A DNA stretch of 64,000 nucleotides from Rhodospirillaceae bacterium (lineage in GTDB: Bacteria > Pseudomonadota > Alphaproteobacteria > Rhodospirillales > UBA2165). The stretch is from NCBI GenBank assembly GCA_018674495.1, contig JABHAA010000121.1, positions 22,848-86,847 on the forward strand, in the 5' to 3' direction. This document shows positions 30,839 through 35,590 of the stretch, one piece after another (the stretch's first letter is position 1; every line of letters starts with the position of its first letter). The position numbers and the translations under genes are program-made. Below the pieces are notes generated by a model, which saw only the letters and a program-made list of their open reading frames with translations, made no database searches and was not told where the DNA came from.

Positions 30839-31127
30839 GCAATCTCGCCTCCCTAATGGCGTTCATTCCGGTTCCGCATGCTTATTAGTACAGGTTTGGT
30901 GATTCGAGTGAAAAATCAAGGGGTAACAGCCCAGCCGGCCGGGGATGCTAAGGTCCGTTAGCCGGGCGTCCAGTCTAGGCACCTCGGTCTCTGCGTTGCT
31001 CAGCCAACTGCACGATCATTTACAAATTGAATCAAACCGAACTATGAAATCCAGCACGAGTTAATACCAACAAGCATTTGAAGGTGGTATCTCAACTCGA
31101 TACAATTTGAAGCTGTTGGAAAAATTT

Positions 31128-33515
31128 ATGAGGCACATTTGTGTGGTTCGATTTTTAGCAATATTAACATTCTCGGCAGCACTAATATCAGCGCATTCAG
31201 AAGTAGCTTTGGCGGAGAATGACCCGGGTAAAAAGGCCACCGGTGTCCTTCACAATAGCCTTGAAAAAGCGCGAACCAATCATCCGAAGGTCTGGCGTAA
31301 TAAGAAAAACAACACATCATTCACCATAACCATTACCAATACCAAGATCATGCCGGGCGGCGCTCCGTGCCGGAAGTATGAAATAGAAGCACAAGGGAAA
31401 AAGGGTGTGTATCTCACCAAAGGTGGGGCTTGCCGGGAGGACGATGGAAAGTGGAGGATCGTAACGAAGAACACGACTCTGACGAACAAAGTACCAACGG
31501 CGCCGCGCAAAAGAGGCGTATGGCTGCCCTCGTCTATCGATGAGATGATGAACGGTGAACAGGTGGCGACGTTCGAAAGTCTCGGCTATAGACAAGGCAG
31601 AACTTCAATAACAGAAGACGTTGGATTCAATTTCGCCAATAATATCTACACCTATAAAAATTCTCAGGGCAGAAACATCAAAACGAAAATTCGAAAACGC
31701 GGAAAACAATTCTGCGTCTTTTCCCCCAACACCAAATCGCCAGACAAAGTATTCGGCGGTCGGAAATGGCTATGCTTGACCGTGTTTTCCACGATAACCG
31801 ATGCGAGAGAAAGGGCGGCTCCTTATTTGACCCCGCATCCAGTTCTAGCATTTCGAATAGTTCATCGAAAAAAAACCGTCTACGACGTGATATCATCGGA
31901 ACACTGCAAGGTTGATACCTATAGAAATCCGCCGGCGCTAAATTGCATGCTGCGAAAGCGTTTCTGGCAAAAGAATATGCCTTTTGATCCCGTGGCAAGA
32001 GCCAGAACTATCCGTCAGACGAACGACGCCAACAAAAAAAGAAATTTGGAAATAGCCTGTCAGAAGGAAATGGCCAGATTGAAAGCGGCTAGGAAGGCCG
32101 CCGCACGCCGCATAAAGAAAATTCGGAAAGCCGAAGCCAAACGGGTAGCCGAAGCCGGAAGAAAATTGGCGGCGAAGCAGCGACGCGAACGTCTGGCTAG
32201 CGAAAAACGGGAAGCGAAAGCGAGGCGTGCGGCTGCGGAGCGAAAAAGAATAGCAGCGATTGCCGAAAAACGGCAGCGTGATGAAATTGAAGCGGAAAGA
32301 AAAGTACGAGAAGAAACCCAAAAGATACGTATGGCCGCGGAACAGGGAGATGCCGTTGCACAAGAACGTTTCGCCAATAGGTTAACCAATGGAATTGGCA
32401 TTGCAAAAAACAATGCCGAAGCGTTGAAATGGCTCCGCAATGCCGCCGAGCAGGGTAATGCAAAAGTGCAGGAACGCCTCGGTAATTGGCTTGCCGACGG
32501 AAAGGAAGTTCCCAAGAACAACAAAGAAGCAGTGAGGTGGTTCCGTAAAGCCGCTGAACAAGGGAAGGCAACAGCCCAGGTACGTCTTGGAAACATGCTT
32601 ACCGGTGGAATGGGTGCTTCAAAAGACGATACAGAAGCGGCGATTTGGTACCGCAAAGCGGCCGAACAAGGTCACGCCAATGCCCAATTCACTTTGGCAA
32701 ATGTATACTCGAAAGGTCTCGGCATCCCTCAGAATGAGGAGGAGGCACGTGTCTGGTACCGCAAGGCTGCCCTACAAGGTATTGCCGAAGCACAATTTAT
32801 CGTCGGAAATTGGTATTTGGATGACCTTGGAGTTCCCCGAAGCGAGGCAGAGAGATTAAGGTGGTTCCGCAAGGCCGCATATCAGGGGCATACCGAAGCA
32901 GCAGAAGCGGTTAAAGTCATCGAGGCAGCGATTGTGGCAAGAAATTCGAAAAACCTCTATCTACCTGTGCCGCCCTCGTTCGACCCTAGAAACGCCCGCA
33001 GCTTTATAACCTGGAGAAAACAAAGATTGCATCGCGCATACGTGATCAGTCCGGGAGGTGCTGCAGGATGGACGAGCGGCGCTGCATCGAGAATGTTGGC
33101 GGAATCAATTGCAATGGGTGGCTGCCGCAGAGAAGCGGGGCGAAATTTTTTAGGCCTTCTGGATGACAATGTTTTGCGGCGCAATCAAAACAAATGCACG
33201 TTGATTGCGGTCGATCGGAAAATTGTTGGTGCTAAACCCAGAAAGACAGAATCCGTTTATAGGAATTATGGCGCCGGTTCAGCTTCGACAAATGGCGCGT
33301 CTTCTGATGCTTATAAGATCATCGAAGACCGCAGAAAGGCGTTTTCTCATAAAAGCGTAAAAATTCGATGCCTGAAATCAAACGACACGAAGACCATTTT
33401 TTATAAACCTAAGCAGAAGAAGCCATACTGCCATCACCAAATCATCACTACTTGCTTTTCCCATGAAGCGGAAACCACGCTGGACGCCGCCGCCAAATAT
33501 TCCTGCCGCAATTGA
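31128..33515 (+). CDS. Secreted multidomain Sel1-repeat protein
   Basis: Signal peptide (..VALA|E); 17-kDa surface-antigen-like WRN..PCR.Y..GGACR..DGKWR domain; K/R/E coiled coil; ~5 Sel1 repeats (A..W.RKAAEQG..AQ..LG); Cys-containing C-terminal domains; AT-richer codon usage. Confidence 0.88.
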   Translation: MRHICVVRFLAILTFSAALISAHSEVALAENDPGKKATGVLHNSLEKARTNHPKVWRNKKNNTSFTITITNTKIMPGGAPCRKYEIEAQGKKGVYLTKGGACREDDGKWRIVTKNTTLTNKVPTAPRKRGVWLPSSIDEMMNGEQVATFESLGYRQGRTSITEDVGFNFANNIYTYKNSQGRNIKTKIRKRGKQFCVFSPNTKSPDKVFGGRKWLCLTVFSTITDARERAAPYLTPHPVLAFRIVHRKKTVYDVISSEHCKVDTYRNPPALNCMLRKRFWQKNMPFDPVARARTIRQTNDANKKRNLEIACQKEMARLKAARKAAARRIKKIRKAEAKRVAEAGRKLAAKQRRERLASEKREAKARRAAAERKRIAAIAEKRQRDEIEAERKVREETQKIRMAAEQGDAVAQERFANRLTNGIGIAKNNAEALKWLRNAAEQGNAKVQERLGNWLADGKEVPKNNKEAVRWFRKAAEQGKATAQVRLGNMLTGGMGASKDDTEAAIWYRKAAEQGHANAQFTLANVYSKGLGIPQNEEEARVWYRKAALQGIAEAQFIVGNWYLDDLGVPRSEAERLRWFRKAAYQGHTEAAEAVKVIEAAIVARNSKNLYLPVPPSFDPRNARSFITWRKQRLHRAYVISPGGAAGWTSGAASRMLAESIAMGGCRREAGRNFLGLLDDNVLRRNQNKCTLIAVDRKIVGAKPRKTESVYRNYGAGSASTNGASSDAYKIIEDRRKAFSHKSVKIRCLKSNDTKTIFYKPKQKKPYCHHQIITTCFSHEAETTLDAAAKYSCRN

Positions 33516-33534
33516 AGTGGGATCGACGAACAAC

Positions 33535-34041
33535 ATGTCCACCTACATTAGAAAGCCCGAGTTCGTGAAAGCCAAACGGATTGCCAGCGGCCATTGGGAC
33601 GTGACCCATCATGATGGTCGCTGCGAGGTTATGACCGACCCGGCGTTTCGCGCTGCCTTCGATCCTGCCAGCATGGACGCACAAGATGAGATGGATGGCT
33701 GGACTTTCGGTGTCTTCGCCAAACTGGATGCAGATTCCATGATGACCATCATCCGCAATGTGGAGGTGGACGTGATGGCCGCCGCCCTGAAATTTGCACC
33801 CCACGAAGATGTCATCAACGCTTTTTTCGAAAACATGTCCCCGGTGTCAGTCAAGATGGTCAGGGAGAAAATGGGCGACTTGGCGCAATCCCGAGTGAAC
33901 AACACGCCCAAGGCGCGCCACGAAATCCTTGAGATGGTTCGCCAGCTAGCCGAGGAGGGAAAAATCAATCTAAATGAAGGCATGGCCCTTTCCGTCAACA
34001 GCGACGCGGGCCCGGCGATCTGGAACGAGGATTTCGAGTAA
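33535..34041 (+). CDS. Hypothetical protein with FliG C-terminal-like domain
   Basis: C-terminal ~95 aa (WTF..FAKLD....AAALK...FFENMS...ILEMVRQLAEEGKINL) align by eye with FliG_C. Confidence 0.75.
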   Translation: MSTYIRKPEFVKAKRIASGHWDVTHHDGRCEVMTDPAFRAAFDPASMDAQDEMDGWTFGVFAKLDADSMMTIIRNVEVDVMAAALKFAPHEDVINAFFENMSPVSVKMVREKMGDLAQSRVNNTPKARHEILEMVRQLAEEGKINLNEGMALSVNSDAGPAIWNEDFE

Positions 34042-34202: not shown

Positions 34203-34520
34203 CTAGCGGCTGAGCGTCAGACTAACGCCGGACTTGGTCAGATATTCGGCGATATTTTCGCCCAACCCGGTCAACCGCCAATCGGTTTCTCCATTCCACT
34301 CAAACGCCTGGACGAAATCCATTTCAACCAAAGCTGCGATGGTTGGATCGAACCAGTCTTGGCTGGTCAATTTGCCGGTGGAATGTATTTGGGTCATCAA
34401 AATTGCATAGCATTGGTTCTTGTCGAGTTTGTATGTAGCAAGGTCGGGCTTGGGTTCGGCGTCCTCCGCCGCAGCTTTGCGTTTGGAAAGAGCGCCCTTG
34501 ATCAAATTTCGAAGTGTCAT
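34203..34520 (-). CDS. Hypothetical protein, possibly winged-helix-like
   Basis: 105-aa ORF from ATG; LVEMDFV...WRLTGLG resembles the wing and terminal helix of wHTH domains. Confidence 0.55.
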   Translation of the reverse strand: MTLRNLIKGALSKRKAAAEDAEPKPDLATYKLDKNQCYAILMTQIHSTGKLTSQDWFDPTIAALVEMDFVQAFEWNGETDWRLTGLGENIAEYLTKSGVSLTLSR

Positions 34521-34646
34521 CTTCAATCCCAATCGGATTTGTACCGGGCGTCGCCCAAGACTGTCTGCCTCAGGAAATCACCCGGTGCGCATAAAGCGGC
34601 TCTGCCTGGCCGATTTGGTGGCAGGCTATTTCGATCAGTGATTTGG

Positions 34647-34778
34647 TTAGAGTTCGGAAATCAACAGGAGCAGACCCAAACAGGCGGCCACGCAAATAGC
34701 GGCAACCACCCACTTCCAGGTGCTGATTATCGGCGTACTATTGATCTGTGTTTCCGGCTTAGATACGTCTTCGGCCAT
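34647..34778 (-). CDS. 43-aa single-pass membrane protein (not in ORF track)
   Basis: MAEDVSKPETQINSTPIISTWKWVVAAICVAACLGLLLLISEL*; purine-rich GGATGGGAAAG upstream of ATG. Confidence 0.6.
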   Translation of the reverse strand: MAEDVSKPETQINSTPIISTWKWVVAAICVAACLGLLLLISEL

Positions 34779-34827
34779 GGCTTTCCCATCCACATTGCGA
34801 ATTCAAACCAACCAAAATACTGGTCGC

Positions 34828-35175
34828 TTAAATCCGAACGGGAGGAGCCCGGGTCTGGCATTGAAAGCCGGAATTGATCTTTTTCGCGGCGCGGCTTTCG
34901 CCGGGCCGGTGCGCAATCAGCGACTGATTGCGGTTTAAATTGGCCGCTGTTGCTTTGACCGCAGCCGAGGCGCCGTCGGATTGATCCTTGGATTCGCCAT
35001 CCTCGGCGGCTTCCAGTTCCAATTCGATGACCACACCGGCGTCGGCTTCTATCGCGGCGCTGAACGGTGATGCCGCGACCAACGCAAATACCAGCAAACC
35101 GAACAGAACCGCTACCGGCAAACCGGTCCCAATCGGGCGGCAAATTCTGGCGATGGCGGATGTAAATTGCTGCAT
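34828..35175 (-). CDS. Putative ribosome-arrest leader protein (TM/signal segment plus C-terminal RAPP)
   Basis: 115 aa: hydrophobic VAVLFGLLVFALVAA, acidic linker, ends GFQCQTRAPPVRI*. Confidence 0.65.
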   Translation of the reverse strand: MQQFTSAIARICRPIGTGLPVAVLFGLLVFALVAASPFSAAIEADAGVVIELELEAAEDGESKDQSDGASAAVKATAANLNRNQSLIAHRPGESRAAKKINSGFQCQTRAPPVRI

Positions 35176-35590
35176 CGTCTTCCGGGTAATTTGTTTGAAC
35201 CGCAACACGATATTCTTGGCCAGCCGGTTTTTCAATTCAGAAATGCAATCTGGTTGCTCGAGGCTGGAATTGCTTGCATTTGTACCCAGTATGTTCTATA
35301 CTATTCGATTCCAAATTTACCGCAGATACGCAATGAATAAAGGCTCCGATTGGCCATGCCCTGTATGCATGCCCGGCTGTCAAATAGTGTTGCACGGCTG
35401 CGAAAAATAAAGGGTTATCTGCCATAAAATCCACACCAATCCTTACTAAACCATACTTATCCATATCAGATTCCGCAGACAAGATGTCGCACCCGCCATG
35501 CACTGCTCGCACGGCTCTGCCCCGCGTTGACAGGTGGAAGTTGGCGTGGAACCTTGGCTCAAATTGGGCAGCGGAATTGAGGGGGAAATT

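Follow-up and report, generated by a model that had tools for sequence, protein, structure and literature searches.

Ribosome-arrest leaders that carry a RAPP motif are widespread, and for those that serve neither Sec components nor metal genes it is an open question, according to the accessible part of PMC12992588, where the releasing force comes from and what the output is for. The same text places the stall with the first Pro of the motif in the P site, reports arrest in vitro for 7/7 of the Streptomyces RAPP/RGPP proteins tested as well as for CruR, and describes the motif as selected against in ordinary proteins. RAPP alone is insufficient for arrest; according to the available part of PMC7897499, a permissive upstream context is needed. 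In SecM and uDF_RQH, the stalled ribosome opens a stem-loop over the next Shine–Dalgarno sequence (PMC7897499 and PMC10987492, in their accessible parts), and CruR acts through Rho (PMC9426467, likewise in part).

The stretch of Rhodospirillaceae DNA analysed here (64,000 nt, hereafter the window) lies on contig C117 of genome G000. On its minus strand, a 115-aa ORF ending in RAPP is followed by a 43-aa ORF and then by a winged-helix ORF (Table 1). We propose that the 115-aa ORF is probably an arrest leader, the stalled ribosome of which would unmask the start of the 43-aa gene.

Set against the class features given in the available part of PMC7897499 (80–200 aa, an N-terminal signal or transmembrane segment and a hydrophilic stretch of at least 40 residues), every feature of the RAPP class that can be tested is present in the leader: its size and N-terminal segment fit, the stretch is 71–79 residues long, RAPP is conserved and a stem is predicted at the G000 locus. 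It thereby shares with ApdP, ApdA, ApcA and SecM a length of 80–200 aa, an N-terminal topogenic signal, at least 40 hydrophilic residues and a conserved RAPP, as those proteins are described in the accessible parts of PMC7897499 and PMC10987492. With the RAPP/RGPP upstream ORFs in the accessible part of PMC12992588 it has in common a length below 300 aa, a localisation signal, RAPP near the C terminus and a same-strand gene downstream. The type of switch, predicted here, is that of SecM, uDF_RQH and CutF, in which the stall opens a stem. The likeness to ApdA, ApdP and SecM drawn in the first-pass annotation thus holds for the layout of signal, spacer and RAPP, but no secA, secDF or yidC follows the leader and no sequence family link was found. 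The yajC–secD–secF, secE, secY and yidC genes of G000 are located elsewhere, with secD following yajC on another contig. An Atlas match to SecM_small (0.90, 109 of 256 features shared) is treated as a lead only.

Three features recall the metal-responsive leaders CruR (Bordetella) and CutF (Rhodobacter). RAPP stands three residues before the end, as in CruR; the spacing between an upstream element and RAPP is fixed in the leader family, as in both; and a stem is predicted over the next start site, as in CutF. Unlike these DUF2946 (PF11162) proteins, the leader has no CxxC, no conserved Cys or His and no metal gene downstream. PF11162 gave no match in the leader (P0001), in its six relatives or in the G000 genome, and the metal-responsive likeness that had been suggested is therefore abandoned.

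The targets named for RAPP/RGPP upstream ORFs in the accessible part of PMC12992588 are TonB receptors, copper chaperones, YcnI, PepSY, DsbA, sigma factors and similar proteins, whereas the target here would be a 43-aa peptide of no family. What is new relative to the known RAPP leaders is this micro-protein target together with a metal-free acidic spacer; the switch itself is of a known kind. A search of the open full-text literature, with subscription papers outside its scope, brought up no report of a RAPP leader placed ahead of a gene for such a micro-membrane protein. One-helix peptides of 30–50 aa with a ribosome-binding site in a long stem are known among type I toxins and small single-helix membrane regulators such as Hok, TisB, MgrB and AcrZ. 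Unlike in these systems, control here would apparently be exerted by an arrest leader, and the peptide has no family match.

Table 1. Coordinates of the features of the unit within the window
Feature	Position	Strand	Description or basis
115-aa leader ORF (P0001)	34828..35175	-	N-terminal hydrophobic segment, acidic spacer, C-terminal RAPP-VRI-stop
Hydrophobic signal/anchor segment	35071..35121	-	Residues 19–35; hydropathy and predicted helix 21–34
Acidic spacer	34975..35049	-	Residues 43–67; contains ExExE stretch
RAPP codons	34840..34851	-	R109–P112
Predicted mRNA stem	34779..34849	-	30 bp, including 6 G-U pairs
Shine–Dalgarno-like GGAUGGGA of the 43-aa gene	34784..34791	-	Predicted stem partner: leader Pro-Pro codons
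43-aa ORF (P0002)	34647..34778	-	~20 polar residues, then one hydrophobic helix to the C terminus (tail-anchor layout)
105-aa winged-helix ORF	34203..34520	-	126 nt past the 43-aa stop; model and fold search
Sigma-70-like promoter match, TTGAAA-17-TATCGT	35207..35235	-	Weak: 1 found versus 1.7 expected by chance

The probable RAPP leader and its family

The 115-aa ORF has the coordinates and the sequence first reported for it, including the hydrophobic segment, the acidic spacer and the end CQT-RAPP-VRI-stop. The hydrophobic segment covers about residues 15–35 (best 19-residue Kyte–Doolittle mean, 2.42), and E55, which is invariant among the relatives, lies 56 residues N-terminal of Pro111. 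By analogy with ApdP and CruR, the ribosome is expected to stall while Pro111 occupies the P site and Pro112 the A site. In the structure model (pLDDT 55.6, pTM 0.22) helix 21–34 is the single block that exceeds pLDDT 80; such a low-confidence predicted fold is as expected of a nascent-chain sensor. P0001 matched no Pfam family at E up to 1 and no NCBIfam family. An alternative start at TTG 35235, which would give 135 aa, is less likely, ATG 35175 being used in most records.

Protein and genome searches yielded a family alignment of seven members, in which the others are 23–79% identical to P0001. They comprise P0006 (79%), P0018 (54%), P0017, P0019, P0020 and a relative in genome G009 that was found by genome search, is 31–35% identical and ends QN-RAPP-CPS-stop. 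The conservation of RAPP among homologues to which the first-pass annotation had pointed is complete: the motif is invariant in 7/7 members, with exactly three residues between it and the stop in each. The only invariant columns of the alignment are A22, G26, L27, E55 and R-A-P-P. Because the search profile itself contained RAPP, we rescored the new members with the last 12 residues removed from both profile and targets. Three of the four remained significant (P0017, E 6e-22; P0018, E 1e-15; P0019, E 3e-7), and P0020 fell to E 0.2. The distance from the hydrophobic segment to the third RAPP residue is 71–79 residues in all seven members, with a best 19-residue hydropathy of 1.93–2.54. No Cys or His column is conserved, and 3/7 members have no Cys at all. 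The six relatives gave no Pfam match at E up to 0.1.

The family is rare (seven clusters), which limits its reach. A repeat protein search with the seven-row profile returned no further members. An order-level scan of 401 genomes found members in G000 and G009 only (two more weak matches were other frames or long genes), a class-level scan of 401 genomes found none beyond G000 (five weak partial matches), and a scan of GTDB contigs returned the G009 record only. None of the 560 + 282 pattern matches from JGI metagenome scans was confirmed as a family member, viral and plasmid scans contained no member, and no family row was found among those listed in the accessible supplements of the PMC12992588 survey. 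The family seems to have two branches, one that ends in RAPP-VRI and is tied to the 43-aa gene, and another with different targets, of which SulP is the sole one seen.

Taken alone, the layout of the leader is within chance in a single genome. Among 22,609 six-frame ORFs of 60–300 aa in G000, 29 have RAPP or RGPP near the end; a hydrophobic segment is present as well in 2 of these, where 1.3 would be expected. It is conservation, together with the stem described below, that raises the leader above chance.

The 43-aa gene and the predicted stem over its start

As first noted, the 43-aa ORF (34778–34647) begins after a 49-nt gap past the leader stop. It is not unannotated, as had been thought: gene calls for it exist on 87 contigs, in records of NCBI, JGI/IMG, Logan and ENA. 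Relatives at 79% (P0021) and 74–78% identity keep the M1-A2-E3 start, the length of 43 residues and the C-terminal hydrophobic helix, which answers the question of small-ORF conservation in the affirmative. For both P0018, the 54% leader relative, and P0021, the sole ENA contig recorded is 1,284 bases long; the equal lengths suggest that the two are neighbours on the same contig, in which case the peptide would be better conserved than the leader. The peptide matched no Pfam or NCBIfam family over cut-off and no Rfam entry at E up to 1, showed no SulP similarity and had Atlas matches that were all below 0.9. A profile of the peptide turned up no true relative among 400 other genomes; of 12 weak matches, the 9 examined represented alternative reading frames or segments of longer genes. 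A role as a SecE stand-in was rejected because a normal secE is present in the genome. Its most likely role is that of a small accessory or stress protein of the membrane.

The CGACCA/TGGTTG hairpin that had been noticed in the spacer is present, but rather than a small isolated hairpin it is the 6-bp apex of a predicted 30-bp stem. The 5′ arm (34849–34820) consists of the Ala-Pro-Pro-Val-Arg-Ile-stop codons of the leader and 8 nt more, followed by the loop (34819–34816) and the 3′ arm (34815–34779). In the predicted fold, the Pro-Pro codons pair with GGAUGGG directly 5′ of the 43-aa ATG. The fold of 34880–34740 has an energy of −51.1 kcal/mol (z −3.61, 0/200 shuffles) and its 79-nt core a z of −3.02 (2/200 shuffles), giving a range for the stem of −3.0 to −3.6. 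Only 1.5% of 15,000 synonymous recodings are as stable as the native stem, 5 of 2,494 stop-anchored genome windows pair at least 22 coding bases, and 10 of 1,037 GC-matched genome windows reach equal stability. Pair probabilities are 0.61–1.0 in a 706-nt context. On these models, the leader codons look tuned to the 43-aa start site. No sequence change is listed inside the stem among eight same-species runs.

Opening of the 43-aa start site is predicted to cost 13.4 kcal/mol, a value equalled by 23 of 500 genome start sites. In a single-ribosome model, the cost drops to 6.4–6.8 kcal/mol with the P site at codons 108–111 (15-nt reach), and is 8.4 at codon 107 with an 18-nt reach and 8.8–10.3 at codons 114–115; a ribosome with codons 108–111 in the P site would thus free the Shine–Dalgarno sequence best. 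With queued ribosomes, the cost at Pro111 is 8.7, versus 8.4–8.9 at termination. Because this gain is no better than that at termination, an elongating or terminating ribosome would also open the stem.

In 4/4 RNA runs (three studies; four of the six RNA runs listed for the stretch were compared), contigs run across the end of the leader and the start of the 43-aa gene; one such contig covers 34582–34965. These contigs are unstranded, may contain DNA and come from runs chosen because they hold the stretch, so that they indicate presence in RNA libraries only. They end at 35185 and 35177 in one study and at 35149 in another, and none covers 35186–35581, where the DNA runs continue, which hints weakly at a 5′ end close to the ATG. 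A terminator-like pattern is called at 34826–34809, one of 5 in the region versus 2.3 expected.

Proposed switch and competing explanations

In the mechanism that we favour, and judge probable from sequence, modelling and analogy, the hydrophobic segment would bring the nascent chain to the Sec channel, as in ApdP, SecM and VemP. Under normal pull the stall would be released, the stem would refold and the peptide would stay off; under weak pull the stall would be prolonged, the stem would stay open and the peptide would be made. The signal is the least certain step. Given the lack of conserved Cys and His residues, export force is a likelier input than metal binding, which is unlikely. Nothing links the 43-aa peptide to the export machine, the usual control target of force sensors, and this counts against the proposed mechanism. 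The unit is compact (~530 nt), with no metal ligands and a clear predicted switch, and would be a small test case for an arrest peptide that reads export force or membrane potential and for the role of a stall-induced 43-aa peptide. Function-based surveys would file its target micro-protein as hypothetical.

A more specific proposal, which we consider unlikely, is that the leader is a natural sensor of membrane potential. The pull of an energised membrane would end the stall, and depolarisation would maintain it and open the stem, inducing a 43-aa peptide that would protect or shut down the membrane. At a Pro111 stall, ten acidic residues would be 44–68 residues out, eight of them at 44–60. 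This overlaps the distance near 50 at which, according to an experiment cited in the accessible part of bioRxiv 10.1101/310698, the pull of the membrane potential on engineered Asp stretches passing through SecYEG peaks. After the anchor, the net acidic charge is 7–9 in the three leaders that end in VRI, a level that 0–1 of 138 comparable G000 proteins reach. Against this reading, the other four members have a net 1–4 acids, and the acids found family-wide lie at 53–60.

Also unlikely is a transcriptional explanation akin to that of CruR, in which the stall would block Rho or RNA cleavage at the stem, the output would be the full transcript downstream, above all the winged-helix gene, and the 43-aa ORF would be a passenger. 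CruR, in which RAPP is likewise three residues from the end, offers the precedent (PMC9426467, in its accessible part). The 3′ part of the leader is mildly C-rich (C/G of 27/23, 26/20 and 26/19 in three 78-nt segments), but the excess is small. RNA contigs reach over the winged-helix gene to ~34310 and a second stable hairpin lies at 34586–34543; yet the first stem directly masks the Shine–Dalgarno sequence of the 43-aa gene, whereas masking of the winged-helix start is nothing unusual (an equally high cost is found at 111 of 500 genome start sites) and termination on the 43-aa ORF barely changes it. Moreover, the winged-helix relatives occur in an unrelated flavin-oxidoreductase locus.

Slightly less likely again is a portable module for a transporter such as SulP, the target of which has been lost here, leaving the 43-aa gene merely behind the leader under plain translational coupling. 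Of the distant members, the one from G009 alone has readable DNA, and there a SulP gene follows the leader after 102 nt, which means that the 43-aa ORF is not the family-wide target. In the accessible part of the PMC12992588 survey, at least 15 RAPP rows likewise have SulP downstream, and in at least 13 of these the motif is close to the C terminus. The unit occupies a lower-GC variable segment, the leader is absent from 3/3 other genomes of the genus, and G000 has only a C-terminal SulP fragment. Against this explanation, a RAPP-ended ORF is missing from all 26 related SulP loci for which 350 nt or more of upstream sequence is available (30 loci were examined, four of them without upstream DNA; one has RAGP in an overlapping frame), and SulP as a fixed target of the leader family was rejected on this ground. 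The 43-aa protein, in addition, lacks SulP similarity, seems more strongly conserved than the leader and apparently accompanies it, and the leader codons look tuned to its start site. The unusual micro-membrane target put forward in the first-pass annotation is retained as a conserved 43-aa protein behind a predicted Shine–Dalgarno-masking stem, but not as the target of the whole family, given SulP in G009.

Least probable, and rather improbable, is that the 115-aa protein is an ordinary non-stalling small membrane protein and the stem a terminator or processing site: the terminator-like pattern and the dependence of RAPP on a permissive context (PMC7897499, in part) would fit, but RAPP is the only conserved block in a divergent, low-confidence chain, is counter-selected in ordinary proteins (PMC12992588, in part), and the stem is crossed by RNA contigs in 4/4 runs.

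The G009 spacer has no significant stem, 51% of 3,000 synonymous recodings being as stable as the native sequence. The SulP gene behind it (L030 1058–3397, +) is split by an in-frame stop into parts of 318 aa and 450 aa, and is either a pseudogene or the result of an assembly error. The only SulP match in G000 is a C-terminal fragment of ~235 aa (C155:20557–21264, −; locus L029), which directly follows what we take to be an alanine-dehydrogenase-like ORF.

The winged-helix gene and the genomic setting

The 105-aa ORF is possibly the third gene of the unit. Its most likely start is ATG 34520, which fits the MALRD starts of relatives. The model (pLDDT 66.7) gave a best Foldseek match to ZitR (E 0.009, TM 0.55), and structural alignment gave Z 9.4 and an rmsd of 2.2 over 70 aligned residues. 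A MarR-like winged-helix fold is therefore predicted, in agreement with the earlier description of the ORF as wHTH-like. It matched no Pfam or NCBIfam family, and its wing region is acidic. A 49% identical paralogue lies on contig C120 and relatives occur in two genomes of the genus, each of them next to a presumed flavin oxidoreductase gene, with none in 250 other sampled genomes of the order. The relatives (L076 1477–1809, −; L019 463–813; L020 1473–1826) form a genus-level family of ~105–118 aa with the winged-helix fold and no Pfam match; they presumably follow a flavin oxidoreductase gene and converge on an iron–sulfur protein gene. The idea of another relay, linking the end of the 43-aa ORF to the start of the winged-helix gene, was rejected, the opening cost falling from 9.6 to 8.6 kcal/mol only. 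The hairpin between the two genes (34543–34586, −) has 18 pairs and no U tail; the spacer that holds it folds with z −3.34 (1/200 shuffles) and forms no switch for the winged-helix start.

Within the window, the unit falls between tRNA-Asp and a mandelate-racemase-family gene. GC content is 0.43–0.56 in its segment (~30.8–35.8 kb) versus 0.55–0.67 on the flanks. Two of the three other genus genomes part from the window sequence at ~35273 and ~35521; in the third, the winged-helix ORF and a short repeat are the sole matches. A Rhodospirillaceae bacterium is the recorded source of a leader copy with 97% identity, and the metagenome runs that hold DNA of the stretch are marine or seawater.

Two short sequences lie 5′ of the leader. 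The 36 bases at 35263–35298 are 86% alike to an intergenic stretch at C63:22304–22339 (E 0.023), a match that may reflect a shared regulatory site. At 35426–35473 there is a short, internally repetitive, dispersed intergenic element with copies on C34, C130, C12, C155, C116 and C87; similar stretches occur in the genus, and the element is present on other contigs in 4/4 DNA runs. On the far side, a gene at 33463–34041 (+) converges on the winged-helix gene and encodes a stand-alone protein with a FliG C-terminal domain only (E 3e-17), distant from the flagellar genes. Beside the tRNA-Asp, also in the low-GC segment, a gene at 31107–33515 (+) encodes a protein of 802 aa that contains five Sel1 repeats and a 17-kDa-antigen-like stretch.
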